Below, piece after piece: positions 7,715-46,058 of a stretch of DNA of 64,000 nt (position 1 is the stretch's first letter; each line of letters starts with the position of its first letter). The stretch is from the IMG/VR virus record IMGVR_UViG_3300009551_000042; one strand, written 5' to 3'. The position numbers and the translations under genes were made by a program. Below the pieces are notes generated by a model. That model saw only the letters and a program-made list of their open reading frames with translations. It was not told the DNA's origin and did not search any database. This DNA comes from a virus (taxonomy: Duplodnaviria; Heunggongvirae; Uroviricota; Caudoviricetes).

Positions 7715-7800
7715 ATTACTAGCCGCTCCGCGCAGGCGCCTCGGCTTGCGATTCTCCCTAAGCGAGCCTGGGCGTCTGCTCGGGGCGGCAAGGATTTTTC

Positions 7801-7962
7801 ATGTTGACTGCTCTCACTGTGAGTCTCCCCATTTGGCTTCCGATCGTGGTTGGTCTCGTCGGCACCGGGCTAGAAGCAACGGGCAACCCGGTTGCGGTTG
7901 CTATCGGCCAAAAGCTCGAAGCGATCTCGATCGACCTCCCGAAGCTATTCGGAAAGAAGTAA
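7801..7962 (+). CDS. small membrane protein (holin-like?), 53 aa
   Basis: aagga RBS; one predicted TM helix LTVSLPIWLPIVVGLVGTGL; below the ORF-track length cut-off. Confidence 0.35.
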   Translation: MLTALTVSLPIWLPIVVGLVGTGLEATGNPVAVAIGQKLEAISIDLPKLFGKK

Positions 7963-8340: not shown

Positions 8341-8616
8341 GCTACCATCGGTGTCCCGTGCACGGGCTGGCCCCGTGCGACTGCCGATGGGCTCTAGTGC
8401 CGAAACGCTGACGTCGACAATACTCGCTGATGTGAGTTTGATTCGCCCGCGAACTTTCGCTGACATCTTTCTTGCTTCTGTTCTTATCCCTGGGCTGTTC
8501 GCTTGGACGGCCCTTAAGGGACTCTTGCTCCACGTGACCGACCGGCGTCGGTGATGGGCTGTAACCCCGTTCCGCTTTGCGCGGCAGTTAGGTTCGACTC
8601 CTAAGTGGTGCACTAT

Positions 8617-8691
8617 GCGGCTGTATCTCAATTGGCAGAGGCCCGGCTTTTAACCGGTGCGACGTCGGTTCGAACCCGGCCAGCCGCACCA
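8617..8691 (+). tRNA. tRNA-Lys(TTT)
   Basis: 7-bp acceptor gcggctg/cagccgc, T-arm gtcgg-ttcgaac-ccggc, loop cttttaa, CCA encoded. Confidence 0.65.
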
Positions 8692-8695
8692 CAAT

Positions 8696-8769
8696 GCGTG
8701 TGTAGCACAGAGGTAGTGCAGTCGGCTCTTAACCGATCGGATCGCGTTCGACTCGCGACGCACGCACCA
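8696..8769 (+). tRNA. tRNA-Lys(CTT)
   Basis: Acceptor gcgtgtg/cgcacgc, D gcac/gtgc, AC gtcgg-ctcttaa-ccgat, T tcgcg-ttcgact-cgcga, CCA encoded. Confidence 0.7.
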
Positions 8770-8816
8770 TCCCCCACGGTTCGCCCGTGGGCTGCCTGGG
8801 GCAACCAGGCTTCTAT

Positions 8817-8888
8817 TCCGGGATCGTCTAACTGGTAGGACTAGGGATTCTGAATCCCTCAACGCTGGATCGTACCCAGCTCTCGGAT
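8817..8888 (+). tRNA. tRNA-Gln(CTG)
   Basis: U1:A72 acceptor tccggga/tctcgga, AC aggga-ttctgaa-tccct, T gctgg-atcgtac-ccagc (A54 T-loop). Confidence 0.6.
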
Positions 8889-8904
8889 CTCTTTGACAAT
8901 CTAT

Positions 8905-8989
8905 TCCAGGATGGGTGAGCGGCAAGCCACTCGGCTGTTAACCGAGCGCAGAAATGCAATCGTTGGTTCGAATCCAACTCCTGGAGCCA
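8905..8989 (+). tRNA. type II (long variable arm) tRNA whose anticodon loop reads GTT
   Basis: Acceptor tccagga/tcctgga, G73, CCA encoded; AC ctcgg-ctgttaa-ccgag; variable hairpin gca-gaaa-tgc; T gttgg-ttcgaat-ccaac. Confidence 0.5.
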
Positions 8990-8991
8990 TT

Positions 8992-9063
8992 GCCGGTCTA
9001 GCACTCGGGGAGTGCACCTCATTTGTAACGAGGAGTAGATGGGTTCGAATCCCTTGATCGGCT
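8992..9063 (+). tRNA. tRNA-Thr(TGT)
   Basis: Acceptor gccggtc/gatcggc, D gcac/gtgc, AC loop ttgtaa with A31-C39 mismatch, T atggg-ttcgaat-ccctt. Confidence 0.55.
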
Positions 9064-9150
9064 CTAGGGTGCCTGTTGGTGTGGCGTACCCGTTAACTGA
9101 AGTAACCCAACGCTCGCTGGCAGACCGAGCAAACCCGTCCGCTCATTCAT

Positions 9151-9221
9151 GGCGCATGTACTGCTGGTGCGGTAGTCGGCTTTTCACACCGACCCGCCGG
9201 GATCGTAACCCGGATGCGTCA
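9151..9221 (+). tRNA. tRNA, probable Glu(TTC) with expanded anticodon loop (C31-A39 mismatch)
   Basis: Acceptor ggcgcat/atgcgtc, T ccggg-atcgtaa-cccgg; AC stem gtcgg/ccgac with 9-nt loop cttttcaca. Confidence 0.4.
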
Positions 9222-9310
9222 CTACCCGGAGCGGCAACCGGGCATCAAAGTGTCGCGCGCAGGCTTCGAGACATTTGGCCCGGGCTGGTTCTCTCGATTG
9301 TAGCGCGTTA

Positions 9311-9383
9311 GGGTCGTTAGCAAATCTGGTGATTGCCGTGCGTTGAAGCCGCACAGAGGCCGGTTCGAATCCGGCGCGACCCA
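9311..9383 (+). tRNA. tRNA-Phe(GAA)
   Basis: Acceptor gggtcgt/gcgaccc, D gcaa/ttgc, AC gtgcg-ttgaagc-cgcac, T gccgg-ttcgaat-ccggc. Confidence 0.75.
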
Positions 9384-9473
9384 CTTGTGCGGAGTTGGCT
9401 CCGTTGGCGACGGGGGAAGGCCTGTGACCTGGGGTGAGAGGACCCTTTTGACTGCCAGGAAAGACTGGCTCTG

Positions 9474-9546
9474 CGAGCTGAAGTCCGTTGGACGGACACG
9501 TGTCTTGGGCACACGATGTATGAGAGTTCGATTCTCTCCAGCTCGA
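9474..9546 (+). tRNA. tRNA-Pro(TGG)
   Basis: C1:G72 acceptor cgagctg/cagctcg, D gtcc/ggac, AC cgtgt-cttgggc-acacg, T gagag-ttcgatt-ctctc. Confidence 0.7.
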
Positions 9547-9551
9547 CGACT

Positions 9552-9626
9552 GGGGTGTGGCCCGGGTTTGGGCAAGGGCGGCTGTGACCCGCTTTTAACG
9601 GAGTTCGACTCTCCGGCATCCCTCCA
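9552..9626 (+). tRNA. tRNA, probable His(GTG)
   Basis: Acceptor ggggtgt/gcatccc, T cggag-ttcgact-ctccg, CCA encoded; AC ggcgg-ctgtgac-ccgct; D-arm irregular. Confidence 0.45.
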
Positions 9627-10186
9627 TGGACAGGGAGAAAAGCAAACGCCTGAGCTATGTGCTGAGGCACCACCCAGAAAGCGCCGGGCTTACGCTTGAC
9701 GTTGCTGGTTGGGCTGACGTGCATCGCCTTATGGCGAACATGGGGTTTAACCCGACCGAACTGTCTCACGAAGTGCTTACGAATTCAAAGCAGCGCTTCG
9801 AGTTCAGTGATGATGGGATGCGCATTCGCGCCTGTCAAGGTCACAGTGTGGATGTAGACCTGGGGCTACGCGAGCAGCAGCCGCCCATAGTGCTTTTCCA
9901 CGGTACGTGCGAAGACTCACTTCCTGGAATTCGGGAAGAGGGCATCAAAGCGATGTCCCGTAGACAGGTGCACCTGTCGACCGACCGCGAGACGGCTCAG
10001 CAGGTCGGGGCTCGTCACGGTGCGCCAGTCGTCTTGAGCGTTCAGTCATTGCTGATGTGCGTTGAGGGCTACCGCTTCTATCTCTCGACCAACGGAGTCT
10101 GGCTTACGGATTCCGTACCATCAAAGTTCATCAACTTCGGGCCGCGCCGACAGCCCTCGGGTATTCCCGAAAACCCGGCGCCCTAA
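9626..10186 (+). CDS. kptA: RNA 2'-phosphotransferase (Tpt1/KptA family)
   Basis: KRLSYVLRHHPE, IRACQGHSVDVDL, VLFHGTCEDSL, RRQVHLS motifs; start ATG overlaps the CCA end of the preceding tRNA. Confidence 0.8.
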   Translation: MDREKSKRLSYVLRHHPESAGLTLDVAGWADVHRLMANMGFNPTELSHEVLTNSKQRFEFSDDGMRIRACQGHSVDVDLGLREQQPPIVLFHGTCEDSLPGIREEGIKAMSRRQVHLSTDRETAQQVGARHGAPVVLSVQSLLMCVEGYRFYLSTNGVWLTDSVPSKFINFGPRRQPSGIPENPAP

Positions 10187-10188
10187 AT

Positions 10189-10259
10189 GCTACCGGACGC
10201 GATTGGATCGCGAACCCGCTGTCTACGGGTTGAAGAGGGTTCGATTCCCTTCGGTAGCG
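10189..10259 (+). tRNA. tRNA-Asp(GTC)
   Basis: Acceptor gctaccg/cggtagc, D cgcg/cgcg, AC acccg-ctgtcta-cgggt, T gaggg-ttcgatt-ccctt. Confidence 0.7.
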
Positions 10260-10330
10260 CCCGCTGGTGACACAGCAGACCGCTACCCGTCGGCACACGG
10301 GTTGATAGGCGTAACGGGTACGCCGCTCAT

Positions 10331-10398
10331 GAGTCCGAGTGCAGGGCACAACGAAGCCTCCAAAACTTCGGAACTAGGTTCGATTCCTAGCGGGCTCG
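10331..10398 (+). tRNA. tRNA, probable Trp(CCA); compact D-arm, C31-A39 mismatch
   Basis: Acceptor gagtccg/cgggctc, T ctagg-ttcgatt-cctag; AC stem cgaag/cttcg with inner loop ctccaaa; 68 nt. Confidence 0.4.
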
Positions 10399-10557
10399 CT
10401 ACATGTCGAGATCAAGGCATGACAGCAAGCGTCGTGGTGGCCGTGAATATTGGTCGCGTCGCTACACGCCAACAGCGCTCTCCTGGGGAACGTATGGCAA
10501 ACGTTTGACGCATCGCTTCGAGCGGCAGCAAGCCAAACGAATCATTCTCGAACAATC

Positions 10558-10630
10558 GGGGCACTGACGAAGGCGTCGGAACATCCTTGCAAGATGTCTC
10601 CAGAGGGAGCGTTACCCTCGTGCTCCACCA
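10558..10630 (+). tRNA. tRNA-Ala(TGC)
   Basis: Acceptor ggggcac/gtgctcc with G3-U70, AC acatc-cttgcaa-gatgt, T gaggg-agcgtta-ccctc (non-canonical T-loop), CCA encoded. Confidence 0.6.
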
Positions 10631-10730
10631 GTCGCCAGTTAGCTGATAAATCACTGGCAAGCAGGGACAAGGGTTACCGGTTTACTAGACCCTCCTGCGA
10701 ACTCGATTGCAACGAGCAAACCGGAACAAT

Positions 10731-10799
10731 GCTGGTTCGTCTTGGAGACCGCTCTGCATGGTAAGCAGGCCGGAACGGGATCGAAACCCGTAACCAGCT
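10731..10799 (+). tRNA. tRNA-Thr(GGT)
   Basis: Acceptor gctggtt/aaccagc, AC tctgc-atggtaa-gcagg, T acggg-atcgaaa-cccgt; tiny D-loop. Confidence 0.45.
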
Positions 10800-10978
10800 C
10801 GGGCATTCCCAGGATCGGGGAGTTTGAAAGTCGGCACGCCTGCCGGCGCTTAGCAACTTAAACGCGGGTTGTGGTGACATGTGGCGCGCCGGTCGCTCCG
10901 GCAATGACAATCACATGCAGGCCGGTTTGCTGTCCGGTCGCAATCCACCAAAGCGGACTAGTCACTAAAACAGCATCT

Positions 10979-11053
10979 GCGCGTGAGGTGTACTTGGCTG
11001 CATCTCTGTCTTCCAAACAGAAGGACTCGGATCATTCCCGAGCACGCGCACCA
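10979..11053 (+). tRNA. tRNA-Gly(TCC)
   Basis: Acceptor gcgcgtg/cacgcgc, AC tctgt-cttccaa-acaga, T ctcgg-atcattc-ccgag, CCA encoded. Confidence 0.65.
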
Positions 11054-11054
11054 C

Positions 11055-11128
11055 GCAGTCAATGAGTTACGGTAGCTCGTCGCATTGCCAATGCGGAGGC
11101 CCGGGATCATCACCCGGTGACTGCACCA
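11055..11128 (+). tRNA. tRNA-Gly(GCC)
   Basis: Acceptor gcagtca/tgactgc, D gagt/gctc, AC tcgca-ttgccaa-tgcgg, T ccggg-atcatca-cccgg, CCA encoded. Confidence 0.7.
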
Positions 11129-11129
11129 C

Positions 11130-11198
11130 GACCCGCAGCCCAGGGGGCTAGCAGCGCTGCAAACGCAGCTCGGGGCGGATCGATACCGCCGCGGGTCT
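11130..11198 (+). tRNA. tRNA-like, anticodon unresolved
   Basis: Acceptor gacccgc/gcgggtc and T ggcgg-atcgata-ccgcc are clean; the central region folds as a tetraloop hairpin (gctgc-aaac-gcagc) instead of a 7-nt anticodon loop. Confidence 0.35.
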
Positions 11199-11203
11199 CA
11201 AGC

Positions 11204-11271
11204 GCCCCCGCCGATGGACGGCACCGCGTCTTCTAAACGCACGTGAGCAGGCTCGATCCCTGCCGGGGGCA
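11204..11271 (+). tRNA. tRNA-Arg(TCT)
   Basis: Acceptor gcccccg/cgggggc, AC gcgt-cttctaa-acgc, T gcagg-ctcgatc-cctgc; truncated D-arm, 68 nt. Confidence 0.45.
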
Positions 11272-11275
11272 CTAT

Positions 11276-11347
11276 GCCGCGCTCGACTTCAGGTGAGGTC
11301 GTAGGTTTCTCAAACCTACCAGACGGGATCGTTACCCGTGCGCGGTG
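11276..11347 (+). tRNA. tRNA-Glu(CTC)
   Basis: Acceptor gccgcgc/gcgcggt, D gact/ggtc, AC taggt-ttctcaa-accta, T acggg-atcgtta-cccgt. Confidence 0.7.
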
Positions 11348-11385
11348 CCGATGAAACCAGGCACCACACCGATCGGTTAAATCAT

Positions 11386-11454
11386 ACCCCGGCCCGAGGA
11401 TGGGCCGTGACGCTACGAACGTTACTGGACAGGGTTCGAGTCCCTGACGGGGTA
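11386..11454 (+). tRNA. tRNA-Arg(ACG)
   Basis: AC tgacg-ctacgaa-cgtta, D ggcc/ggcc, T caggg-ttcgagt-ccctg; acceptor has a G7-A66 mismatch or a 1-nt offset. Confidence 0.5.
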
Positions 11455-11512
11455 CCTATGTCGGGCGAGTGAAACGGTTCACGTCAGCCTCATAAGCTGA
11501 AAACACCCAGGT

Positions 11513-12478
11513 TCAATTCCAGGGGCCCGACTCCAAAATCTTCTCCGCGTACGCTTGCCCAATGAGGCAATCCGCGGCGCCAGTCCTATGGATCATGTCA
11601 GCGCCAAACGCTGACCCGTAGGAGTCGATCGCGTGACCAGGTGACGCGATCGACGTCTGCACGGCGCGCACAGCATCCATGCTGGCCTTCTTGTATCGCG
11701 GCGACCAAGTGATCACGATGTACGGATCCAGCGGCTGTTTCGCGACGCCTTCGAACGCCGCCCGCAACGCAGCGAGCCGTCCGGGCCAGGCTGCGGTAAC
11801 CTCGGGGTCGCCGAGCTTCGCTTCGTTCTCGCCTTGATCCCAGACCCAGCGGAAATCAAACGCAGTACCGGACGGGAACTCTTTGGCGAGCAGCGAAACC
11901 GCCAGCTCGAATTTCTTGACGTAAGGAACGCCGGGACCAGTCGGATCCCACTGGCTGATGTACGTGCCGCCGTGCGTGATCTTGATCACGGCAACGCGAC
12001 GGCCGGCAGCCTGCAAGGCCTTTGCTGCGCATAGCTCATGTGACAGCGTGCCGTCGAACGCAGGAGCAACTGACAGGAACGCTTCCTGCTGGAGCGCCTT
12101 TGCCTTGCCGAAGCTGAACTGGAACTCCGGAATTGTTGCGTCCGGAACGCCTCCCGGTACCGAGTCCGTCGACATTCCCTCCGCGTTGCTCTGACCAGCA
12201 ACGAACAGCACGATGACTGGAAGCTCTGGGCCTGCACCAGCTTCGCCTCCAGTGGCTAACGCACCCGCTTCGCCTCCGGCGCCTGCTGCTCCGGCCTCGA
12301 CGCTCGCAGCCTGTCCCGCTTCGCCACCGATGGTCGCTTGCTCAACAACGGCAGGAGCGCCGGCCCCTGATTCGTGGGCCCCCGCCTCGTCGCACAGTGT
12401 GGCCTGATTCGACTCAGTAGGCACCGCTGACGAGCAAGCCACCACCATTCCCACTACAAGCATAGCCATGTGTTTCAT
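11513..12478 (-). CDS. secreted lipoprotein, SASA-type SGNH carbohydrate esterase (sialate O-acetylesterase-like)
   Basis: Signal/lipobox MKHMAMLVVGMVVAC, Ala/Gly-rich linker, then VAGQSNAEG (GQSNMxG-type motif). Only minus-strand gene inside the plus-strand tRNA array. Confidence 0.6.
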   Translation of the reverse strand: MKHMAMLVVGMVVACSSAVPTESNQATLCDEAGAHESGAGAPAVVEQATIGGEAGQAASVEAGAAGAGGEAGALATGGEAGAGPELPVIVLFVAGQSNAEGMSTDSVPGGVPDATIPEFQFSFGKAKALQQEAFLSVAPAFDGTLSHELCAAKALQAAGRRVAVIKITHGGTYISQWDPTGPGVPYVKKFELAVSLLAKEFPSGTAFDFRWVWDQGENEAKLGDPEVTAAWPGRLAALRAAFEGVAKQPLDPYIVITWSPRYKKASMDAVRAVQTSIASPGHAIDSYGSAFGADMIHRTGAADCLIGQAYAEKILESGPWN

Positions 12479-12517
12479 CTATGCGCATGGATATCGTCCA
12501 TATTTATTACCGTCAAG

Positions 12518-12589
12518 CGTGCGCGGCTGAGGTAGCAGCGAAGGCTCATATCCTTTAGCTTTTGGGTTCGAATCCCAGGCGCACGACCA
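12518..12589 (+). tRNA. tRNA-Met/Ile(CAT)
   Basis: C1:G72 acceptor cgtgcgc/gcgcacg, AC gaagg-ctcatat-ccttt, T ttggg-ttcgaat-cccag, CCA encoded; no initiator G-C triplet. Confidence 0.55.
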
Positions 12590-12660
12590 CCAGGAGGCGC
12601 GAATGATGCCTATTCGCTGGCGAGGACTTTAGCGGACCCCGAACTATCGGAGGTTTCGCA

Positions 12661-12735
12661 TGTGCAAGTATTGCAAGCTTGCGATCCAGCTCGGCGGCAA
12701 GATGTGCCGCCCATGCTGGCGTCGGAAGCGTTGAA
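12661..12735 (+). CDS. 24-aa zinc-ribbon micro-ORF (MCKYCKLAIQLGGKMCRPCWRRKR)
   Basis: GGAGG RBS 8 nt upstream, CxxC-N9-CxxC; a second AGGAGG-ATG micro-ORF (MMPIRWRGL) lies at 12603-12632. Confidence 0.3.
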
Positions 12736-12812
12736 CTGACACTCGCAGAGGCGAACGCCTGCTGCGCAAAAATGGAGAGCCGCGCGCCAAGCGTCTGAAC
12801 AGCGGCAACTAT

Positions 12813-12884
12813 TCCAGGTTCGTCTAACGGGTAGGACGCAGGATTTTGGTTCCTGCTATCGGGGTTCGAATCCTCGCCCTGGAA
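12813..12884 (+). tRNA. tRNA-Gln(TTG)
   Basis: U1:A72 acceptor tccaggt/ccctgga (7:66 mismatch), D gtct/ggac, AC cagga-ttttggt-tcctg, T cgggg-ttcgaat-cctcg. Confidence 0.55.
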
Positions 12885-12888
12885 CAAC

Positions 12889-12963
12889 GGCACGCGAGTC
12901 CAGCTGGTGAAGGCGGCGCACTTACAATGCGTTCTCGCATGGGTTCGATTCCCTGGCGTGTCA
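12889..12963 (+). tRNA. tRNA-Val(TAC)
   Basis: Acceptor ggcacgc/gcgtgtc, AC gcgca-cttacaa-tgcgt, T-stem with 1-nt bulge around ggg-ttcgatt-ccc. Confidence 0.5.
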
Positions 12964-12969
12964 CCCCGA

Positions 12970-13041
12970 GCGCGTTCGGTTGGGTAGCCTAGCCGGCCTT
13001 ATGAGCGGTGAGAGCTGGTTCGACTCCAGCAGCGCGCACCA
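12970..13041 (+). tRNA. tRNA, anticodon unresolved (expanded 8-10-nt loop ccttatga)
   Basis: Acceptor gcgcgtt/agcgcgc, T gctgg-ttcgact-ccagc, CCA encoded; no clean 5-7-5 anticodon hairpin. Confidence 0.4.
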
Positions 13042-13042
13042 T

Positions 13043-13116
13043 GCACCTGAGTCCACCTGGTTGGTGGAAACGATCTGATACGTCGTACGCGGTGAGTTCG
13101 ATTCTCACGAGGTGCA
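13043..13116 (+). tRNA. tRNA-Ile(GAT)
   Basis: D tcca/tgga, AC acgat-ctgatac-gtcgt, T gtgag-ttcgatt-ctcac; acceptor gcacctg/gaggtgc with 7:66 mismatch. Confidence 0.6.
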
Positions 13117-13152
13117 CCCGTCTGCGGGAGGACGTTAAACAGTCCCGTCAAT

Positions 13153-13226
13153 CCTGACGTAGCCCAATTGGCCGAGGCAACCGTCTTAGAAACGGACAGA
13201 TGTGGGTTCGAGTCCCTCCGTCAGGA
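13153..13226 (+). tRNA. type I tRNA whose anticodon loop reads TAG (Leu CUA codon) but lacks a long variable arm
   Basis: C1:G72 acceptor cctgacg/cgtcagg, AC accgt-cttagaa-acgga, 5-nt variable loop, T gtggg-ttcgagt-ccctc. Confidence 0.45.
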
Positions 13227-13241
13227 CTAGTAGCGACTAAC

Positions 13242-13326
13242 GCAAGCGTGGTGGAACAGGCAGACGCAGCGGCTTCAAACCCCGCCGGGCTATCAGCCCA
13301 TGCGAGTTCGACTCTCGCCGCTTGCA
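13242..13326 (+). tRNA. type II tRNA (85 nt); anticodon loop cttcaaa (TCA) or alternative register CAA
   Basis: Acceptor gcaagcg/cgcttgc, T gcgag-ttcgact-ctcgc; anticodon stem imperfect (gg/cc then mismatch). Confidence 0.45.
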
Positions 13327-13332
13327 CAGACC

Positions 13333-13857
13333 ATGAGACGCCGAAGAGCAAACCAACCCGGTCGCAAAACGCTGGTTCTTAGCGCAAGCTACGTGCCCGT
13401 CCGCATTATCTCATGGCGCGACGCAATCAAGATGCGTTGCGAGGACACGGCCGATGTGGTGGCGGAGTACCGCGAGACGGTTAGCTCACCGTCGGTAACG
13501 TGGCGCATTCCGGCCGTGATCCGCGAGCGGCAATTTCACAAGGGCCGCGCTGGTGTCAGGTTTAGTCCGCTGAATGTCTTCAGGCGCGACGGCTACCGCT
13601 GTCAGTATTGCGGCGACAGATTCCCGCCCGACAAGCTCGAATGCGAACACGTTGTCCCGAAGAGCAAGGGCGGGAAGCGCAACTGGGAAAACATCGTTGC
13701 GGCATGCCGCACATGCAACGCCAGAAAGCGCGATAGGAGCTGCGAGGAGATCGGCATGTTCCCGTTGGCCAAACCAGTGCGGCCCAAGTCGCTTCCTGTC
13801 GACAGGCTCGAGGTGCCGCACGAGCGAGCGCCTGAAGAATGGCTCGCGTATTTGTGA
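13333..13857 (+). CDS. HNH endonuclease
   Basis: CQYCG...HVVPKSKGG...N...ACRTCNARK HNH motif; ATG chosen right after the tRNA 3' end (longer 13300 start would overlap the tRNA). Confidence 0.7.
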   Translation: MRRRRANQPGRKTLVLSASYVPVRIISWRDAIKMRCEDTADVVAEYRETVSSPSVTWRIPAVIRERQFHKGRAGVRFSPLNVFRRDGYRCQYCGDRFPPDKLECEHVVPKSKGGKRNWENIVAACRTCNARKRDRSCEEIGMFPLAKPVRPKSLPVDRLEVPHERAPEEWLAYL

Positions 13858-13862
13858 TTTCT

Positions 13863-13945
13863 GGAAAGTAAACCCTGAGTGGTCGGGGAGCCGGTTTGAA
13901 CCCGGTGGCACCGCAAGGTGAGGCGTTCGACTCGTCTGCTTTCCT
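13863..13945 (+). tRNA. tRNA-Ser(TGA), type II
   Basis: Acceptor ggaaagt/gctttcc, AC gccgg-tttgaac-ccggt, variable hairpin cacc-gcaa-ggtg, T aggcg-ttcgact-cgtct. Confidence 0.6.
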
Positions 13946-13951
13946 CAAACT

Positions 13952-25676: not shown

Positions 25677-25690
25677 TCAAAACCTCCGGG

Positions 25691-26079
25691 TGGACCGCCC
25701 GGGAATCGAACCCGGGTCCACGAGACGGAACAGAGGATCTCGCTCACGCGCGTAGTCCGTTTAGAGCCCGGACGGGCTTGACGCCGGGGGGACGGCGCCT
25801 CCACCACCAGTGCCTACTAGAACGTCGATGGAAGGTGCACTGGAACCATCGTCGACAGCTGCCCGTGTATTTGCGCCGTGAGAGCTACTCGGGCTCTCGC
25901 ACCCACGACGGCTTACGCTGCCAGGGGCAGGTAAGCATCACCCTCGTCGGCTTGCGCCTCGAAGGGGACCGCGTTGTCGTTCGCAGTTACGTTTGCTCGC
26001 CGGGATTAACGACTCTCGCGAGCATGAGTCGGCGCGATCAATCCTACATCCACATCCCATGTCGAAACCTGTGCGGCCC
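25691..26079 (-). ncRNA. ssrA: tmRNA (ssrA-like), tag reading frame ANDNAVPFEAQADEGDAYLPLAA-stop
   Basis: Minus strand: 5' GGGCCGCACAGGTTTCGACATGGG (cf. bacterial GGGG...GGAUUCGACGGG); 3' T-arm ccggg-ttcgatt-cccgg plus acceptor gcggtcc pairing with the 5' end including G3-U70; tag ORF at plus 25904-25975 ending LAA-TAA. Confidence 0.7.
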
Positions 26080-27039: not shown

Positions 27040-27264
27040 CTAGGCCGGCACCGTTGAATGCAGTGGCTTACGGTCGCCCTCAGTGCACAGCACAGGAGCA
27101 TCCAAGATGACCCGGAGTCCTTCGAGCGCAAGCCCAGCGACTGCTACGGCCTCACGCGCCTCAGCGTCGCCAGCAAGCGTGTCCGTGGCTGCGTGACGCA
27201 CCACAGAACGGAGCTGTGCGGTAACTTCAGCGGCGCGAGCAACGATACGATCGAAGCGCGTCAT
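27040..27264 (-). CDS. hypothetical small protein
   Basis: 74 aa; start directly abuts the palindromic operator-like site. Confidence 0.5.
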   Translation of the reverse strand: MTRFDRIVARAAEVTAQLRSVVRHAATDTLAGDAEAREAVAVAGLALEGLRVILDAPVLCTEGDRKPLHSTVPA

Positions 27265-27271
27265 CAGTTAT

Positions 27272-27296
27272 AAGTTATTACTGGCAGTAATAACTT
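27272..27296. promoter_or_regulatory. perfect palindrome AAGTTATTACTG-g-CAGTAATAACTT (operator-like)
   Basis: 12-bp inverted repeat with 1-nt spacer immediately upstream of the minus-strand gene; half-site variants recur at 28225-28238, 28307-28322, 31104-31135. Confidence 0.5.
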
Positions 27297-27312
27297 CGCG
27301 CAACAAAAATCG

Positions 27313-27618
27313 TCACGCCGACTGGACGTGCAGCAGAAACAGGCCGGATTTCACGCACATTGCGCTTGCTACATCGCACGCGATCCCGAGCGACGTCTCC
27401 AGACCAATGTCTTCGCTGACGAGAAATCCAAGCGCGAGCCACACTCCCCACTCGCTCTGCGCGTAGATGAGATCCTCTTCCAGGACGAACGCTTCGCCGT
27501 CGGGAACAGCGCTCGTCATCACGACGCTGTAGCCCAGCTCACCCGCGGCCACGTCGTAACGCGATCCGAGTCTACGCAGCTCAATGATCAGTTCCCGGCG
27601 CGCCCCAGACATCTTCAT
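27313..27618 (-). CDS. hypothetical protein
   Basis: Start at MKMSGARREL...; GC3-rich. The upstream Arg-rich extension is rejected, and the antisense ORF 27328-27645 judged spurious. Confidence 0.45.
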   Translation of the reverse strand: MKMSGARRELIIELRRLGSRYDVAAGELGYSVVMTSAVPDGEAFVLEEDLIYAQSEWGVWLALGFLVSEDIGLETSLGIACDVASAMCVKSGLFLLHVQSA

Positions 27619-27685
27619 GAGACCGCGCAGAGTGCCCCGCGCTAACAAAATCGTCAACGCAATCCCGCCCCGCGTGTGACTTTTT

Positions 27686-28210
27686 TTAGGGCTTGCTTCG
27701 GATCTTGCGCGACGATCGTCGAGTGCTGCCCGCGCTTCGTACGCTCGGCGGCGATGTGTCACTTCCTGAAGTACGCTTACGCCCGAACGTTTCGAGCATG
27801 GTGGCAACTGCGATCAGATCCAGGGCTTCCAACTGTTCAGGTGGGAACGACAGCACCGACCGACCCACGCGCTCCCACACTTTTTCAGTGAAGCGATTTC
27901 CAGCGACACGGCGCGCAGAAAATAGAGCCACTTGATAATTGGGCAGCTCGGAACACATGCGCAGTGTGTGCGAAGGGGCATCGTCTTCGATGTTTAGGAT
28001 CTCGTTGATGCTGATCCCAAGCTCACGCGCGATCTTGCTAGCGCTCTCAACGGACCCACCCATGTCACCGTTAACGAAGCGGTGAAGCCACGACTGGCTT
28101 TGCTCAATCGCAACAGCCGCGCTGCTCAAGTTGCCACCGTGAATCTCGATGAGGCGCCTCGCAAACGTGCGAACACGCTCGTTCATTTCTGGGGTTAGAT
28201 GAGCGGCCAC
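27686..28210 (-). CDS. HTH (XRE-like) transcriptional regulator, CI-like repressor candidate
   Basis: HTH SKIARELGISINEILNI; divergent from a Cro-like gene across an AT-rich intergenic region. Confidence 0.6.
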   Translation of the reverse strand: MAAHLTPEMNERVRTFARRLIEIHGGNLSSAAVAIEQSQSWLHRFVNGDMGGSVESASKIARELGISINEILNIEDDAPSHTLRMCSELPNYQVALFSARRVAGNRFTEKVWERVGRSVLSFPPEQLEALDLIAVATMLETFGRKRTSGSDTSPPSVRSAGSTRRSSRKIRSKP

Positions 28211-28326
28211 TGGCTTTTACCGAGGTTATTATAGTCAGGCATAAATCGCCACCAATTTTTTGACACGGAAACGTCGAATTTCACACAGGTTTTGATGGCG
28301 TCTATGCTTGGTAGTAATAAATTGTC
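28211..28326. promoter_or_regulatory. AT-rich divergent promoter/operator region (genetic-switch-like)
   Basis: Contains TTGACA (28256) and the operator-like half-sites gttattatagtcag and cttggtagtaataaat in inverted orientation. Confidence 0.45.
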
Positions 28327-28437
28327 TTGCACGTATGCAAAGCCGAGAGCACATTGCGAGGTGTGAGACGGCAGCTGAGGGAGCGGCGCTCCAGAACGCT
28401 AGCGGATCCACGGGGCACTGCAACTGATTTTGCATCA

Positions 28438-28671
28438 GTGCAAAAGGCTCCCGCCAGCGAGAATGATAGTGCTGCTGATTGGATCGGACAAGAGCTTGAA
28501 AAGTCCGGACTTTCGGTCGCCCAGCTAGCCGAAAAAGCAGGGATAGACCCGTCAACCGCATGGCGGTGGGCGAAGGGAATTGGAAACTTCAGCCAGGTGA
28601 AGGCTGTTCTTTTTCTGATGTCTTTCAACTCTGACAAGGCTGACTTAAGTCCCCCAGTCGCTGCTGAATAG
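28438..28671 (+). CDS. Cro/CI-type HTH protein
   Basis: HTH SGLSVAQLAEKAGIDPSTAWRWAKG; GTG 28438 start proposed (ATG 28327 alternative). Confidence 0.5.
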   Translation: MQKAPASENDSAADWIGQELEKSGLSVAQLAEKAGIDPSTAWRWAKGIGNFSQVKAVLFLMSFNSDKADLSPPVAAE

Positions 28672-28877: not shown

Positions 28878-30509
28878 ATGAAATACCTACAGCACTTCAA
28901 TCCGGCTCGCACGCCGCAGACCGAGCAAGCGTCCGCTAAGCAGGTCCCGAACTCGGCCGGCGGGTTTTCCTTTGCCGTCGACAACTGGAAGCGCCTGGAA
29001 AGGTTCGTGATCTTGGGGTCTGAGGGCGGCAGTTACTACGCGAGTGAGAAGACGCTGACCCGCGAAAGCGCCGCAGCTGTCCTGGCGTGCTGTGCGGAGG
29101 ATGGTCCGCGCGCCGTCAGTTCTGTCGTGGAAATCTCGGACAGCGGCCGGGCACCAAAGAACGATGCCGCTATATTTGCCCTAGCGCTTGCCGCCACGCA
29201 CGATAACCCGAGCGCTCGTGAGGCGGCGCTCTCCGCGCTACCGCGCGTGTGTCGAACCGGGACGCACCTGTTCCAGTTTGTTTCACAGGTCGATCAGATG
29301 CGCGGCTGGGGCAGAGCCCTACGGCGCGGCGTATCGAACTGGTACACGAGCAAGACGCAAGCTGACCTTGCGTTTCAGGTTTGCAAGTACCAGAACCGCG
29401 AGGGTTGGTCGCACGCTGACGTTCTAGCCCGCTGCCACGCGCGAAGCCTCGACCTGAATCCGGTGTTACGTTGGATCGTCGCTGGCATCAACGGGGGCGG
29501 TGAGCGCGCACATTACAGCCGGGAGATGCAGCTGTTTCGTGAGTATCCGGACCCGGGTCCCCTCCCCGAGTTCCTGATCGACTTCGAGGAGCTGAAGCAT
29601 GCTGACGAGAAGCGAACCATTCAGCTGATTCAAAAACACGGCTACACGCACGAAATGATCGCGACCGAGCATAAGAACTCGGCGGCGGTTTGGGAGTCAT
29701 TACTCCCGCGCATGGGCATGACCGCGCTCATTCGTAACCTGGGCAAACTGACCGAGGTCGGTTTACTCAAGCCGCTGAGTGCAGCCGCGCGAACAGTCTC
29801 CGAGCGATTGCAGGATCGAGAGGCCTTGCGCAAGGGGCGAGTCCATCCGATTCAAATGCTCTCGGCCCTCAGTGTCTACGCACAAGGCCACGGCGAGCGC
29901 GGGTCTCTGACCTGGGTTCCCGTTAGCACTGTGACCGATGCACTGAATGAGGGTTTCTATCAGTCGTTCGGAGTCATCCAGCCGAGCGGCAAGCGCCACA
30001 TGCTGGCGCTCGATGTTTCTGGAAGCATGACCTGCGGGCGCATCGCTGGAGTGCCGGGGCTCACGCCGCGCACTGCGTCTGCGTGCATGGCGATGGTGAC
30101 CGCCCGCGTTGAAAAGGAATGGGAGGTATACGGCTTCTCAGATCGCTTCATCAAGCTGGACATCAGCCCGACTCGTCGCCTGGACGAAATTTGCCACTAC
30201 ATGAACCGGTTGCCGTTCAGCTCGACGAATTGCTCGCTACCGATTCAGTTCGCGAGCCAGCAAAAGATGGAGGTCGATCTGTTCTCCGTCTACACCGACT
30301 CAGAGACCTACGCGGGCAATGAGCACCCGCACCAGTCACTGCGCCGATACCGGCAAAACATGGGTATTCCGGCTCGCATGGCCGTGATCGGGATGGTTTC
30401 CAACGGATTCACGATCGCTGATCCTGATGACGCCGGCATGCTGGACGTCGTCGGCTTTGACACAGCGACGCCCGCGCTACTTTCAGCGTTCGCGCGCGGC
30501 GACCTCTAG
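28878..30509 (+). CDS. rsr: Ro60-related protein (Rsr; TROVE domain plus C-terminal vWA)
   Basis: 543 aa; TROVE-like N-terminal region; C-terminal MIDAS LALDVSGSM. Confidence 0.8.
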   Translation: MKYLQHFNPARTPQTEQASAKQVPNSAGGFSFAVDNWKRLERFVILGSEGGSYYASEKTLTRESAAAVLACCAEDGPRAVSSVVEISDSGRAPKNDAAIFALALAATHDNPSAREAALSALPRVCRTGTHLFQFVSQVDQMRGWGRALRRGVSNWYTSKTQADLAFQVCKYQNREGWSHADVLARCHARSLDLNPVLRWIVAGINGGGERAHYSREMQLFREYPDPGPLPEFLIDFEELKHADEKRTIQLIQKHGYTHEMIATEHKNSAAVWESLLPRMGMTALIRNLGKLTEVGLLKPLSAAARTVSERLQDREALRKGRVHPIQMLSALSVYAQGHGERGSLTWVPVSTVTDALNEGFYQSFGVIQPSGKRHMLALDVSGSMTCGRIAGVPGLTPRTASACMAMVTARVEKEWEVYGFSDRFIKLDISPTRRLDEICHYMNRLPFSSTNCSLPIQFASQQKMEVDLFSVYTDSETYAGNEHPHQSLRRYRQNMGIPARMAVIGMVSNGFTIADPDDAGMLDVVGFDTATPALLSAFARGDL

Positions 30510-30627
30510 TAGCCAAACGAGGCCACAACTAAAACAAGACTACGGCACGAGCCGGAAGCTGGTGGGTTATCAATTGTAAACTGATGCCAACCCCACCGGC
30601 GCCACCTTTGTTCGTGCCAACTTTTAC

Positions 30628-30763
30628 GCAGGTGATCGTCTAGCGGTAGGACGCGAAAATCTCCCTTGACGCCCTCTTTGTCCAATCCTCGGTTGGGCCG
30701 ATAGTTGAGGGTTACCATCTTCAGGAGATCGAAACGCTGGTTCGAATCCAGCTCACCTGCCCA
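30628..30763 (+). ncRNA. Y RNA-like ncRNA (tRNA-mimic module plus long imperfect helix) downstream of rsr
   Basis: 8-bp acceptor-like stem gcaggtga/tcacctgc with CCA after it, D-arm gtc-tagcggtag-gac, T-arm gctgg-ttcgaat-ccagc; the anticodon arm is replaced by an ~80-nt bulged helix (atctcc/ggagat, gccctc/gagggt). Confidence 0.55.
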
Positions 30764-31103
30764 GAGCCCAGGGCCGCACGACGGAGGGTTAACCCGTTAA
30801 GTTTTCCCCCTCCGTCACCACCTTTGCCCGGGCTCGCCTACTTATGACTGAGAGAGTCTTCGTTCCGAGCTGGGTTCTCATAGGCCTGCTCTGTGCCATC
30901 GCGTGCGCCGCTGGCGTCGCTGCTGGTTGCCATTGATCGGGCGACTGGTCAGCTCCGGCCTAGCGGTCGGGTTCCTTGTCGGATTTTGCCTCGGGAGTTT
31001 CGTCGGCCTTCTATGCACCCGTTAACCGCACCGCTTGTTTTTTCCATCTTGGCGCGGATGCCCGTCTGTTGGGCTGACCGTCACGATCATAGAAAACCGT
31101 GGC

Positions 31104-31135
31104 AGTTATTGACTGTGGCGCATGCTATTACTGAG
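31104..31135. promoter_or_regulatory. operator-like motif copies gttattgactg / gctattactgagg
   Basis: Same GTTATTACTG family as the 27272 palindrome; lies in a ~350-nt apparently non-coding stretch after the Y RNA. Confidence 0.35.
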
Positions 31136-31166
31136 GTCGCCAACAGCTCACGGCAGCCAGTGGACA

Positions 31167-31495
31167 AGGCCGGAAAGCTCATCACGACGTTTTACCACGA
31201 GGGCCGCGGATGCCTCGACGTGCATAGCGGCGCGCATCGTGGTCCGGGGCGCGGGCCGTTTCAGCTCGAAGGCCAGAGCAAGCGCTACTCTGGGCCGTTC
31301 GTTGGGCTCGACTACGAATCCACCCTGAACGCCGCCCGTGTGGCTGGCGACGTTTTCGATCACTCGTATCAATGCGGCTCGACGCCCGCTGATGTTTTCA
31401 CGGCCTACGCCGGCCGCCCCTGCGGCAAGCCATGGCCGACCTTAGACGACAGAACGCGCACCTACCGCTGGGTTACGTGGAGGCTTAGTCAATGA
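31167..31495 (+). CDS. hypothetical protein (start uncertain)
   Basis: The ORF-track N-terminus looks like non-coding read-through; in-frame GTG at 31116 or 31167. Confidence 0.4.
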
Positions 31496-33703: not shown

Positions 33704-35359
33704 TTGGCCATGCGTTGCGCTTTCTATGGCCGGAAATCAACCGAAGAACAGATCGCCTCTCTGGACGTCCAGATGGAAGAGGCGACGAGGTATGCCCAAT
33801 CTAAGGGTTGGACGCTTGCTCCCGGACACATCTACCAAGACAGCGCGATCAGCCGCGCAGAGTTCAAGAAGCGCCCAGGTCTTATCGCGCTGCTCAACGC
33901 TCTAAGCTCCGGTGAGTTCGACGCGGTGATCATGCGCGACGACTCGCGCTTGGGCGGCGACATGCACCGCACCGGCCTGGTCGTTCAGGACATCATCGAG
34001 AACGGTAAGCGGCTCTTCTGCTACTTCGAGGAGAACGAAATCACCCTAGAGTCCGCCACGGACAAGTTCATGATGGCCGTGCGAGGTTTCGCGGCTGAGC
34101 TAGAGCGAGAGAAGATTGCAGGTCGTACCCGTGAGCACCTTGAGACTAAGGCCCGCAAGGGCTACGTAACTGGAGGCAAGTGTTACGGATACGACAACGA
34201 GCGTTTAGCCGACCATGTTGAGCACCGCATCAACGAAACCCAAGCCGCTATCGTTCGCGAGGTGTTCCAGGCGAAGGCAGATGGCGACGGCTACAAGAAG
34301 ATCGCAAAGCGTCTAAACGCGCGCGGCGTCCCCTCGCCTAGCGCCGGGAAGCGCGGCACTGGGTCATGGGCCCCGACTATGATCCTCAGCATGCTTCGAA
34401 ACGAGCGCTATATCGGCGCCGTTCTCTGGGGCAAGGCTACGAAGACTTACCGCGGAGGAACGAAAGTCAGGCTTCAATCAGCGGAGGAGGATCGAATCCG
34501 TAGTGAGCGCCCAGAGCTGCGCATTGTCCCGCAAGAGCTGTGGGATCAGGTTCAAGCCGGAATGCGGCAAAACAAGTCGAGCGGACGCAGGCGCGGGCCA
34601 GAGCCTCGCTACCTGCTATCCGGGATTGCCCGATGCTCTGAGTGCGACGGCCCCATGCGGGCACATGCGGCAAAGTTCGGTTCTGAAAAAACCCACCTGT
34701 ACCTTTGCGCTCGTCACCATGATCGCGGTGACGCCGTCTGCAAGAGCGATCTGCGTCGGCCGGTGGCCCTCGTGGACGCAGCCGTGATCGATTGGGTCAT
34801 GGCAAATGTCTTGAATGAAGAGGTCATCACGGCCGTGTTGGCTGAGGTCAGGGGCCGCGTAGCAAAGCGAAGCGAGGCGCCCAACGCCGAGCGCGACGAG
34901 CTGGAAACAGAGTCGAAGCGCCTACGCGCGGAGATCGATCGGCTGGTCGGTGCTTTGGCTAGCGGCGTTGAATCCGCGACGATCGCCACCGTCATCGGTC
35001 AGCGCGAAAAGCGACTGATGGAGGTCAAGGCTCGCCTTGAGGTCATTGCTATCGCGCCTTCGGTCCTGGACCTGGAGGTGCGACGGCTGGAAAAGGAAGC
35101 CCGTGCGCGCCTGAAAGAGTTCAAGAAGATTCTGAGCGGCAACGTGGCCGTTCTTGAGTCACGAAAAGTGCTCGAAGCGCTGTTTGATGGCCCAATGCGC
35201 TTCACCGAGACATCGACCCCCGGTGGCCGCCGCTTTCGCGTTGAATTTGCGGTGGCCACCGGGAATCTGATGTCCCCTACTGCGGGCGTCCCCAAGGGGA
35301 TTCGAACAGTAGGGGACATGATGGAATTCCCTGAAAAACGAGGGGTGCTCACAGCCTAG
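33704..35359 (+). CDS. large serine recombinase / serine integrase
   Basis: N-terminal resolvase catalytic domain (AFYGRKSTEEQ), recombinase domain, zinc ribbon CSECDGPM...C..C, coiled-coil C-terminus. Confidence 0.8.
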   Translation: MAMRCAFYGRKSTEEQIASLDVQMEEATRYAQSKGWTLAPGHIYQDSAISRAEFKKRPGLIALLNALSSGEFDAVIMRDDSRLGGDMHRTGLVVQDIIENGKRLFCYFEENEITLESATDKFMMAVRGFAAELEREKIAGRTREHLETKARKGYVTGGKCYGYDNERLADHVEHRINETQAAIVREVFQAKADGDGYKKIAKRLNARGVPSPSAGKRGTGSWAPTMILSMLRNERYIGAVLWGKATKTYRGGTKVRLQSAEEDRIRSERPELRIVPQELWDQVQAGMRQNKSSGRRRGPEPRYLLSGIARCSECDGPMRAHAAKFGSEKTHLYLCARHHDRGDAVCKSDLRRPVALVDAAVIDWVMANVLNEEVITAVLAEVRGRVAKRSEAPNAERDELETESKRLRAEIDRLVGALASGVESATIATVIGQREKRLMEVKARLEVIAIAPSVLDLEVRRLEKEARARLKEFKKILSGNVAVLESRKVLEALFDGPMRFTETSTPGGRRFRVEFAVATGNLMSPTAGVPKGIRTVGDMMEFPEKRGVLTA

Positions 35360-44761: not shown

Positions 44762-45042
44762 GGGTATTTGTCAGCCTGGTTGCATTCAACCTGGCTGAGG
44801 TCGCGATTCAGAGGGAAGAGGCGCGGGGGATGGTTGAGGCGTGCCTTTGGCGCCTTCTAGCGCTCATTGGCGAAAGGCGACCAAAGCTTGTTGGAGTCTA
44901 CGACGGTGACGCGGGATGCGTTCACGTCGTCTATCGGGTGAGGACGCGCAGTCGTGCGCTGCAATGGCACGCGCTGTCCGCACCATTCGGGGATCTGGAC
45001 CGACGGTTCATTGATGACGCTTGGGGGCAAGAGGAAACATGA
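44758..45042 (+). CDS. hypothetical protein
   Basis: ORF 94 aa. Confidence 0.45.
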   Translation: MRVFVSLVAFNLAEVAIQREEARGMVEACLWRLLALIGERRPKLVGVYDGDAGCVHVVYRVRTRSRALQWHALSAPFGDLDRRFIDDAWGQEET

Positions 45043-46058
45043 CGGATTTTCATGTCGAATGTGTGCGGGTAGGCAAGATCGATAAACACCCGAACGCGGA
45101 CACGCTCGGGATCACGCACGTCGGGGACTACCCGGTGATCGTGAAGCTCGACGACTTCAAAGAGGGCGATCTTGCTGTGTACGTGCCGGTCGATGCGATC
45201 GTGCCGAACAAGCCAGAATGGGCATTTCTTGGCGGACACTTCCGCATCAAGGCCAAGCGCCTACGTGGCGTGTTCTCACAAGGCCTTTTGATGCCGGCGC
45301 CGCTCGGAGTGCTCGAAGGCGAGGACTGCGCTGTGCTGCTGGAGATCGAGAAATACGAGACTCCGGAAGAGAAAGCGGAGCGCTCTGGAGGTGGTCCCAA
45401 CAATCCGCGGCCGCGCGCAGCGGTACCGGCAAGCCTACCGCGTTACACGGACCTGGAGAACGTGCGCCGTTGGCCAAACGCGCTGCGTGAGGGAGAAGAC
45501 GTCGTCATCACCGAAAAGATCGAGGGTGAGAACTGCGGCGTGACTTACGAGCGCTTCCCGTGGTGGAAACGGGCATGGAACTGGTTCTGGTGCGAGCCCA
45601 TGGGGCGCACGATCGTACGCAGCCGCAACCAGCTCAAGACGGAAGGCAAATGGGTTGAGGTCACAGCATCGATCGACTTCGAACAGCTGCCGGATCCGGA
45701 GCGCTATTCGATCTACGGCGAGAGCTACGGCTACACTGCCGGGTTCAACTACGGCAAGCGCAACATCCCGCGCTTCGCGATGTTCGATGCTTGGGATCGC
45801 AAGGAAAAGCGTTGGTGCAACTGGCAAGAGGTGGCTGCGCTCTCATCGTTGCTCGACCTCGACCTAGTTCCCATTCTGCACTGGGGTCCGTGGTCACGCG
45901 ATCTGTTGAATCTCGCTGAGGGTGAATCCGAATGGGATTCGCACGTGCGTGAGGGCTTCGTGGTCCGGCCTGAGAACGAGCGCACCGAGCCCGGATTGGG
46001 TCGCGTGATTCTCAAGTGCAAGGGCGAAGGCTACTTGCTCAGGAAGGAAGCGGCGTGA
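45039..46058 (+). CDS. Rnl2-like ATP-dependent RNA ligase
   Basis: Motif I ITEKIEGENCGV (cf. T4 Rnl2 VTEKIHGTN); GAGGAAA RBS. Confidence 0.7.
   Translation: MTDFHVECVRVGKIDKHPNADTLGITHVGDYPVIVKLDDFKEGDLAVYVPVDAIVPNKPEWAFLGGHFRIKAKRLRGVFSQGLLMPAPLGVLEGEDCAVLLEIEKYETPEEKAERSGGGPNNPRPRAAVPASLPRYTDLENVRRWPNALREGEDVVITEKIEGENCGVTYERFPWWKRAWNWFWCEPMGRTIVRSRNQLKTEGKWVEVTASIDFEQLPDPERYSIYGESYGYTAGFNYGKRNIPRFAMFDAWDRKEKRWCNWQEVAALSSLLDLDLVPILHWGPWSRDLLNLAEGESEWDSHVREGFVVRPENERTEPGLGRVILKCKGEGYLLRKEAA

Follow-up and report, generated by a model that had tools for sequence, protein, structure and literature searches.

A candidate repressor and three operator-like dyads at the strand-divergence point of a large uncultivated phage

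What controls the point at which the genes of a large phage part in opposite directions? The stretch analysed here, 64,000 nucleotides (nt) of the IMG/VR virus record IMGVR_UViG_3300009551_000042 and hereafter the window, raises this question at positions 28211-28437, which mark a strand-divergence point because gene direction flips there: genes run leftward from ~28.2 kb to 16.8 kb and rightward from ~28.4 kb. A sequence-only reading had placed a CI/Cro-like bistable switch at this locus, consisting of two divergent helix-turn-helix (HTH) proteins. Both open reading frames (ORFs), at 27686-28210 (minus strand) and 28438-28671 (plus strand), are indeed present around the AT-rich region of 116 nt (28211-28326), whose GC content is 42-45% compared with 60% for the whole window. 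With a probability of about 0.68, we regard the minus-strand protein, here called HTH174, as a phage XRE-type DNA-binding repressor with three operators, O1 to O3, through which it would control its own and the divergent promoter as well as that of the adjoining leftward block.

Three related dyads around the HTH174 cassette

The features on which the argument rests are the following (aa, amino acids):

27272-27296: O1, the perfect 25-bp dyad AAGTTATTACTG-g-CAGTAATAACTT, 7 nt upstream of the ATG of p74 (minus strand).
28223-28247: O2, AGGTTATTATAGTCAGGCATAAATC, 17/25 to O1; holds the minus-strand TATAAT and lies 12 nt upstream of the HTH174 GTG.
28299-28323: O3, CGTCTATGCTTGGTAGTAATAAATT, 16/25 to O1; overlaps the -10 of the rightward promoter candidates.
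27686-28210, minus strand: HTH174, XRE/Cro-C1-type repressor candidate with GTG start; N-terminal domain 7-72, C-terminal domain 92-143, basic tail.
28228-28255, minus strand: putative HTH174 promoter, a consensus match; -35 TTGGTG at 28250-28255, 16-nt spacer, -10 TATAAT at 28228-28233.
28280-28308, plus strand: putative rightward promoter; TTCACA, 17-nt spacer, TATGCT, 9/12 consensus positions, -10 inside O3.
27313-27618, minus strand: p101, a partner of ~100 aa immediately downstream of HTH174, with homologs in all nine closer relatives.
27304-27330, minus strand: terminator-like hairpin and T-run at the p101 end, directly before O1.
27040-27264, minus strand: p74, 74 aa, first gene of the leftward block past O1, conserved after the distal site in six relatives.
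28438-28671, plus strand: Cro77, Cro-like or CII-like HTH ORF, 77 aa, GTG start; a probable gene, specific to this phage.

The 25-bp palindrome AAGTTATTACTGgCAGTAATAACTT that had been pointed out at 27272-27296 is real and perfect, and its 12-nt arms are the longest among the short-range inverted repeats listed for the window. A window-wide search for the half-site, as the sequence-only reading had called for, revealed no enrichment of the 10-mer GTTATTACTG (21 matches with at most two mismatches versus 17.5 expected), and for this reason the whole 25-mer was scored in an unbiased scan of all 64,000 window positions. The best two non-self matches window-wide are O2 and O3, both located in the divergent region, where two related sites had been claimed. 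Two non-overlapping sites scoring at least 16 within 251 nt arose in 3 of 20,000 simulations of local composition. The centres of O2 and O3 are 76 bp apart and those of O1 and O2 951 bp; each location carries one dyad, and no further dyad sites were found in the 64-kb window or in the 7.3 kb upstream of it.

Additional copies had been suggested at 31104-31135, in supposedly non-coding DNA. These are half-site matches only, 10/12 at best, with one such match outside the operators versus 1.06 expected, and the segment encodes residues 31-44 of a 160-aa protein, p160, that is 63-67% identical in relatives. What is left of the proposal that one repressor controls at least three promoters are three dyads at three promoter-proximal positions, in a layout recurring in eleven loci and with sequences that follow the recognition helix (see below); the fourth location falls away as coding and at chance level.

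From the six half-sites of O1-O3 the consensus is AAKTTATKMYTG, with T5, A6 and T7 the same in all of them. Reading the half-site as positions 4-12 would place the centres ~10 bp apart, the usual spacing for an HTH dimer. O2 and O3 each overlap a -10-like hexamer, and the promoter candidate at O2 predicts a short HTH174 transcript leader of ~11 nt. The TTGACA noted earlier in the divergent region does occur, at 28260-28265; 17 nt downstream of it, however, stands ACACAG, a poor -10.

Together with their inner flanks, O2 and O3 (28223-28323) form a longer imperfect inverted repeat, TTATTAyTAsyCArGCATArA..CGCCA, so that the divergent region is roughly symmetric, as expected of back-to-back promoters. 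At the distal site, a second imperfect dyad at 27265-27283, CAGTTATAA-g-TTATTACTG (8/9 arm positions), overlaps O1 and abuts the p74 ATG; the two combine into three CAGTWATAA units with 10-bp spacing and alternating orientation. The repeat TGACGATTTT(T)GTT (27303 and 27644) was rejected as a further motif family: it shows no enrichment and is better described as the tails of the terminator-like hairpins that follow HTH174 and p101. The palindrome was likewise rejected as attP of a serine integrase, since equivalent sites in relatives have no integrase nearby and their sequences track the HTH protein.

HTH174 and the dyads of its relatives

HTH174 is a member of a previously uncharacterised XRE-type HTH family. 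A word-indexed protein search retrieved only the query itself, and searches of IMG/VR and INPHARED with HTH174 or the Cro-like ORF gave no matches; an exhaustive HMMER search recovered 44 relatives, 11 of them below E 1e-10, with ~40% identity and lengths of 160-175 aa. We place the start at GTG 28210 and not at the gene callers' ATG 28186, because homologs align from residue 1-5. In Pfam, HTH174 reaches 16.3 bits for HTH_26 (cut-off 22) and 14.2 bits for HTH_19 (30.2), whereas among 19 family members (E ≤ 0.1) HTH_3 is matched by eight, HTH_26 by seven and HTH_31 by six, with a best value of 7.7e-6. In profile searches, the earlier XRE/Cro assignment is borne out by the family and, at 23.6 bits against a cut-off of 23, by the Cro-like ORF, but not by HTH174 taken alone.

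Structure prediction points in the same direction. The family profile gives weak, consistent PDB matches to the N-terminal domain of lambda CI (E 0.16-0.9; query residues 5-71 to chain residues 7-76). The AlphaFold2 (AF2) model of HTH174, built from 11 sequences, has a mean predicted local distance difference test score (pLDDT) of 81, with values above 90 over most of residues 11-70 (block means 91-96). Helices are predicted at 7-23, 28-34, 39-46, 54-64 and 68-72, a five-helix domain with a helix 2-turn-helix 3 reading unit, and the C-terminal part consists of three helices (92-143) followed by a disordered basic tail. The top Foldseek match is DdrO (E 1.2e-3, probability 1.00), and ClgR, SinR, Stl, 434 repressor, lambda CI, P22 C2, C.AhdI, C.BclI and CapH are also among the matches. 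All of these except C.BclI are listed with probabilities of 0.98-1.00, from alignments of the N-terminal domain only, with a root-mean-square deviation of about 2-3 Å over 60-70 residues; the probability is 1.00 for the DdrO N-terminal domain, SinR, ClgR and 434 repressor, and 0.98-1.00 for the lambda CI entries, these alignments spanning 60-77 residues at 2-4 Å. Pfam gave no Peptidase_S24 match in HTH174, and the AF2 model contains no peptidase domain.

The disordered tail (27686-27770) carries the motif TSGSDTSPPS, invariant in 7 of 11 aligned family members and near-invariant in the others, followed by the basic RxSxxKIRK. TSGSDTSPPS could be a site of cleavage, a degron or a partner-binding site.

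The contigs that carry HTH174 relatives are syntenic. The HTH gene always comes first at the strand-divergence point, followed by the conserved ~100-aa gene and, further on, by AAA_24, exonuclease, single-stranded DNA-binding protein (SSB), NUDIX and NAMPT. We compared ten such loci (the window, L014, L016, L017 and L019-L024) and, as an eleventh, the distant L027, scanning 3.4-12.5 kb of each relative for dyads. In 10/10 loci, the dyad after the second gene (~+860 to +935 from the HTH start) finds its best non-self matches ~-11 to -190 upstream of the HTH gene. Upstream of its HTH gene, each relative has either a single dyad or two, the proximal ones at about -11 to -61, and its best dyad lies past the ~100-aa partner gene; in L016 and L024 the distal sites are paired. 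In L027, an IMG/VR locus with an HTH protein of 126 aa, TGACWTTCARTGTCA sites flank the HTH gene on both sides (6783-6811 and 7507-7535); the locus has a divergent XRE-like ORF (7516-7812) and no detected ~100-aa partner. The bracketing layout thus extends past the close family. Eleven further IMG/VR loci found through the neighbouring VWA gene were discarded, as the VWA gene alone is common and they show no synteny.

Across the ten loci, the dyads group with the start of helix 3 of the HTH protein as follows:

Window and L014: helix 3 start SQSWL; half-site GTTATTAC.
L016 and L024: helix 3 start DPT(L/W)IFK; dyad AAATCGTGAA-N4-TGCACGATTT, in L016 also written AAATCGTGAA-N4-TTCACGATTT.
L017, L020, L022 and L023: helix 3 start Q-T-(W/F)-(L/V)-S-(R/K); YTATGM-N7-GCATAA (M = A or C).
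L019: helix 3 start NPGSFSR; dyad GATGTATTGC/GCAATACATC.
L021: helix 3 start DPSWLHK; TCTGGCA-N4-TGCAAGA.

Overall identity between the proteins of the window and L014 is only 37%, which makes them no closer to each other than to the other groups; nonetheless they share both the helix 3 start and the half-site. That dyad sequence and recognition helix vary in step supports a dedicated repressor and its operators, which would be expected to look like this. Such a grouping is hard to reconcile with a host factor, with generic promoter elements or with an RNA hairpin.

Neighbouring genes and genomic setting

The proposed Cro-like partner is plausible. Cro77 just reaches HTH_3 (23.6 bits, E 5.4e-5), and codon usage is coding-like from GTG 28438 but not in 28327-28437; a longer version starting at TTG 28327 (114 aa, 22.6 bits for HTH_3) was rejected on codon usage. 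Its PDB matches, to an XRE domain and lambda CII, are weak. On the other hand, no gene caller reported it in either source assembly, no homologs were found, and relatives carry unrelated small genes at this place. At three loci, the window, L014 and L027, the divergent gene encodes an HTH protein; the small genes that several other relatives have there are without Pfam matches, those of L016, L017 and L019 sharing a WLVR...GW pattern, and in L021 the first divergent gene is RtcB. A terminator-like hairpin with T-run lies inside the Cro-like ORF (28590-28616, plus strand), which could end a short rightward transcript or be due to chance.

For p101, no match was found in Pfam, PHROG, NCBIfam or PDB, and the single-sequence AF2 model (pLDDT 37) is unusable, so that no fold was read from it. 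There is no Peptidase_M78 match and no HExxH in the alignment; at the position of the ImmA/IrrE HExxH, most relatives have AHF(L/V)A (consensus IAHFLALEL) and the window protein LGFLVSED. From the alignment, judged by eye, p101 gives the impression of a degenerate ImmA/IrrE-like protein. Beyond O1, the leftward block that begins with p74 encodes a VWA protein, the transfer-messenger RNA (tmRNA), a helicase, AAA_24, exonuclease, SSB, NUDIX and NAMPT. A plus-strand ORF called at 27058-27273 in one assembly is spurious, having no homologs and being overlapped by the conserved minus-strand p74.

The window is the terminal 64 kb of the 112,076-bp metagenomic contig ENA ERZ27252311 (window coordinate = record position - 48,077), from an uncultivated phage with a genome of at least 112 kb. 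A 14.5-kb JGI contig agrees with the window sequence at 99.98% identity. The sequence is phage-like, and a tape-measure-sized gene lies upstream of the window. Three further features to the right of the divergent region matter for what follows:

28878-30509: the Ro60/Rsr gene (rsr).
31013-31495, plus strand: p160, 160 aa, 63-67% identical in four relatives, with coding-like codon usage.
33704-35359: a full-length large serine recombinase (Resolvase, Recombinase and Zn_ribbon_recom), 5.5 kb to the right.

No isolated phage is close; the Ro gene alone matches mycobacteriophages, at ~65% DNA identity, and for AAA_24 the Myxococcus phages Mx8 and Mx9 have a protein of 47% identity. The p160 protein has several invariant Cys, His and Gly residues; no PHROG match (tested as the longer ORF 30893-31495) and no relative among isolated phages was found. 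Other genes of the window encode NAMPT, NUDIX, two helicases, AAA_24, a 5'-3' exonuclease, a DNA polymerase III beta subunit, a VapE-type primase and an RNA ligase.

The window also encodes 21 tRNAs, arrayed at 8527-13946, and the tmRNA (25689-26079, minus strand, 88.8 bits), which lies inside the leftward block that O1 would control and has an unusually long tag of 23 aa, ANDNAVPFEAQADEGDAYLPLAA. After rsr follows a Y-RNA-like element (30543-30780) with a near-threshold Rfam match (37.5 bits versus 38) to the nematode stem-bulge RNA ceN72-3, one of a class described as Y-RNA homologs, and after it a tRNA-like segment with a GGTTCGAATCC T-arm, which is called neither at Rfam gathering thresholds nor by ARAGORN. 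With the Tpt1/PTS_2-RNA gene (9626-10186) and the RNA ligase (45021-46058), the tRNAs, Rsr, Y RNA and tmRNA, as well as RtcB in L021, make up a large RNA-repair and translation-maintenance gene set. At 2705-5059 (plus strand), a protein of 784 aa joins GH5 cellulase and GDSL lipase/esterase domains, adjoined by a 758-aa discoidin (F5/8 type C) protein; both are possible depolymerases, tail-associated or for lysis, and might give a clue to the envelope of the host.

A repressor model and its rivals

On the basis of the dyads and their covariation with helix 3, we propose that an HTH174 dimer would bind a dyad of the half-site AAKTTATKMYTG, with centres ~10 bp apart. Occupancy of O2 would cover the -10 of the leftward promoter and cause negative autoregulation, and O3 would cover the -10 of the divergent rightward promoter, which faces the small HTH ORF and the rsr block. 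O1, perfect and presumably the strongest site, would gate the leftward replication and recombination block, past the terminator-like hairpin that closes the HTH174-p101 cassette. Judging from where the sites lie, control of rsr and the Y RNA, as claimed earlier, could run only via the rightward promoter near 28300. The analysis establishes the sites and the statistics of their placement, the HTH fold as a prediction, the conservation of the layout and the covariation of operators with the recognition helix; binding by HTH174, repression as opposed to activation, DNA looping and any role in lysogeny are what we infer.

In topology the locus matches the immunity region of lambda (OL/PL - rexB rexA cI - PRM/OR/PR - cro): HTH174 would take the place of cI, p101 that of rex and O1 that of OL. 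In both systems, operators in a divergent region overlap both promoters (predicted ones here), and the repressor gene points away from that region; an extra gene follows the repressor in the cassette, and ~1 kb off a distal operator sits at the next early promoter, whose operon runs in the same direction and has recombination and replication functions. HTH174 also shares with lambda CI an N-terminal domain with an extra N-terminal helix (LTPE..R..L pattern) and, as predicted here, a short repressor mRNA leader. In contrast to lambda, single dyads replace the tripartite operators, the Cro counterpart is not conserved, and sequence likeness to lambda CI is limited to E 0.16-0.9. Instead of an S24 peptidase or RecA-cleavable C-terminal domain, HTH174 has a small three-helix domain and a disordered basic tail.

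Phage TP901-1 uses a large serine integrase. Its CI/MOR switch and the present locus have in common the repressor size and domain plan, the lack of a peptidase domain, three operators (candidates here), a small divergent HTH partner (a probable gene here) and this type of recombinase. The CI protein of this Lactococcus phage is ~180 aa long; its HTH domain is N-terminal (aa 1-80), its oligomerisation domains are helical and a peptidase domain is absent, and its operators are OR, OL and OD (PMC7250872). In protein size, absence of a peptidase, operator number and integrase type, our locus seems closer to TP901-1 CI/MOR than to lambda. The distal site, however, lies here beyond the repressor cassette, on the repressor side; TP901-1 CI gave no match among the top 50 structure matches of HTH174, and neither a MOR homolog nor OM sites were identified, homology to CI/MOR not having been searched for specifically.

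Two other types of system bear comparison. In DdrO/IrrE, ImmR/ImmA and CapH/CapP, an XRE repressor is paired with a COG2856 metalloprotease. The strictly conserved small partner gene co-encoded with HTH174 resembles this arrangement, DdrO is the best structural match, and the conserved disordered C-terminal motif of HTH174 could be a cleavage or degron site; p101 differs from ImmA and IrrE in having neither a Peptidase_M78 match nor HExxH. Mycobacteriophage L5 gp71 is likewise a single phage repressor with sites at several locations beyond its own promoter. Its stoperators are asymmetric, oriented 13-bp sites that number dozens across the genome, in contrast to the three symmetric dyads of our phage.

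Several observations weigh against the repressor model. HTH174 alone is below every Pfam gathering score (best 18.7 bits), and the promoter assignments are consensus matches only. A single site scoring at least 17 arises in 6.5% of whole-window simulations, so that 17/25 alone is marginal. The half-sites of the operators are rich in A and T and look like -10 hexamers, so that promoter elements could explain part of the similarity among the three sites. Finally, the relatives are few and phylogenetically clustered and amount to about five or six independent specificity groups.

The bistable switch and the temperate lifestyle that had been put forward go beyond the evidence, the serine recombinase being the only support from which such a lifestyle might be inferred. 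The same protein and sites could instead time the lytic cycle or, under autoregulation, control early genes, much as C proteins do in restriction-modification systems or as early shut-off repressors do; the phage would then be virulent and have no CI/Cro switch for maintaining lysogeny. We consider this a serious rival, though distinctly the less probable one, because L019 lacks the recombinase at the syntenic position and no relative was found in 185,579 genomes. Neither a prophage copy nor any other relative of the lineage turned up among these bacterial and archaeal GTDB species-representative genomes, in scans by a few short peptide patterns, nor is there a lineage relative among isolated phages. 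Large genomes, many tRNAs and tmRNA are features associated with virulent phages, and this phage has at least 112 kb, 21 tRNAs and a tmRNA; the lack of conservation of the Cro-like partner and the presence of C.AhdI and C.BclI among the fold matches fit as well. Against such a timer speak the full-length recombinase 5.5 kb to the right, a topology that mirrors the immunity regions of lambda and TP901-1, and the divergent small HTH gene present in three loci (window, L014 and L027). Furthermore, the scans drew on only a few short patterns, and the likely hosts are uncultivated soil bacteria.

It is unlikely that another factor (Cro77, p101, p74 or a host protein) binds the dyads while HTH174 acts elsewhere. 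Cro77 is also an HTH protein and is encoded beside O3, but from phage to phage the proteins at its position are unrelated to one another, in contrast to the conserved site layout, and the site sequence groups with helix 3 of HTH174. A host protein would leave the five or six different site families of these related phages unexplained, and p101 and p74 have no detectable DNA-binding domain.

Least probable is that the palindrome acts as RNA, as a p74 leader hairpin or p101 terminator, and that O2 and O3 are chance AT-rich promoter look-alikes: the minus-strand RNA 27255-27345 does fold with z = -2.7, palindrome hairpin included, the 10-mer is not enriched and the half-sites resemble -10 hexamers, but the top two window-wide matches fall together in one 116-nt region, the dyads of several relatives have 6-nt arms around seven non-complementary bases (CTATGC-N7-GCATAG), which make poor RNA hairpins and fit protein dyads, and no U-tract follows the palindrome, which is already preceded by a separate terminator-like hairpin.

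Returning to HTH174 as the repressor, a wider interpretation that we regard as rather doubtful is that HTH174 and p101 might constitute an undescribed two-gene immunity module, with p101 as sensor or antirepressor and the TSGSDTSPPS tail as the inactivation site, in a temperate ~100-kb soil-phage lineage endowed with tRNAs, tmRNA and Ro/Y RNA; the module would then exist in at least five natural, mutually orthogonal repressor/operator specificities that metagenomes already reveal.

A repressor with operators at divergent early promoters is an ordinary kind of phage switch; the protein family and the phage lineage were previously undescribed. The analysis corrects the gene calls of the source assemblies, with the HTH start at GTG 28210, p74 on the minus strand and a small HTH ORF that had been missed, and it introduces an XRE repressor family that is new and comes with a conserved partner gene. 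For uncultivated large phages with Ro/Y RNA, tmRNA, tRNAs and RNA ligase, it offers a testable regulatory map of one repressor, three operators and three promoters. The family would also provide natural repressor/operator pairs whose specificity may be read from the recognition helix, for use in specificity studies and as orthogonal parts.

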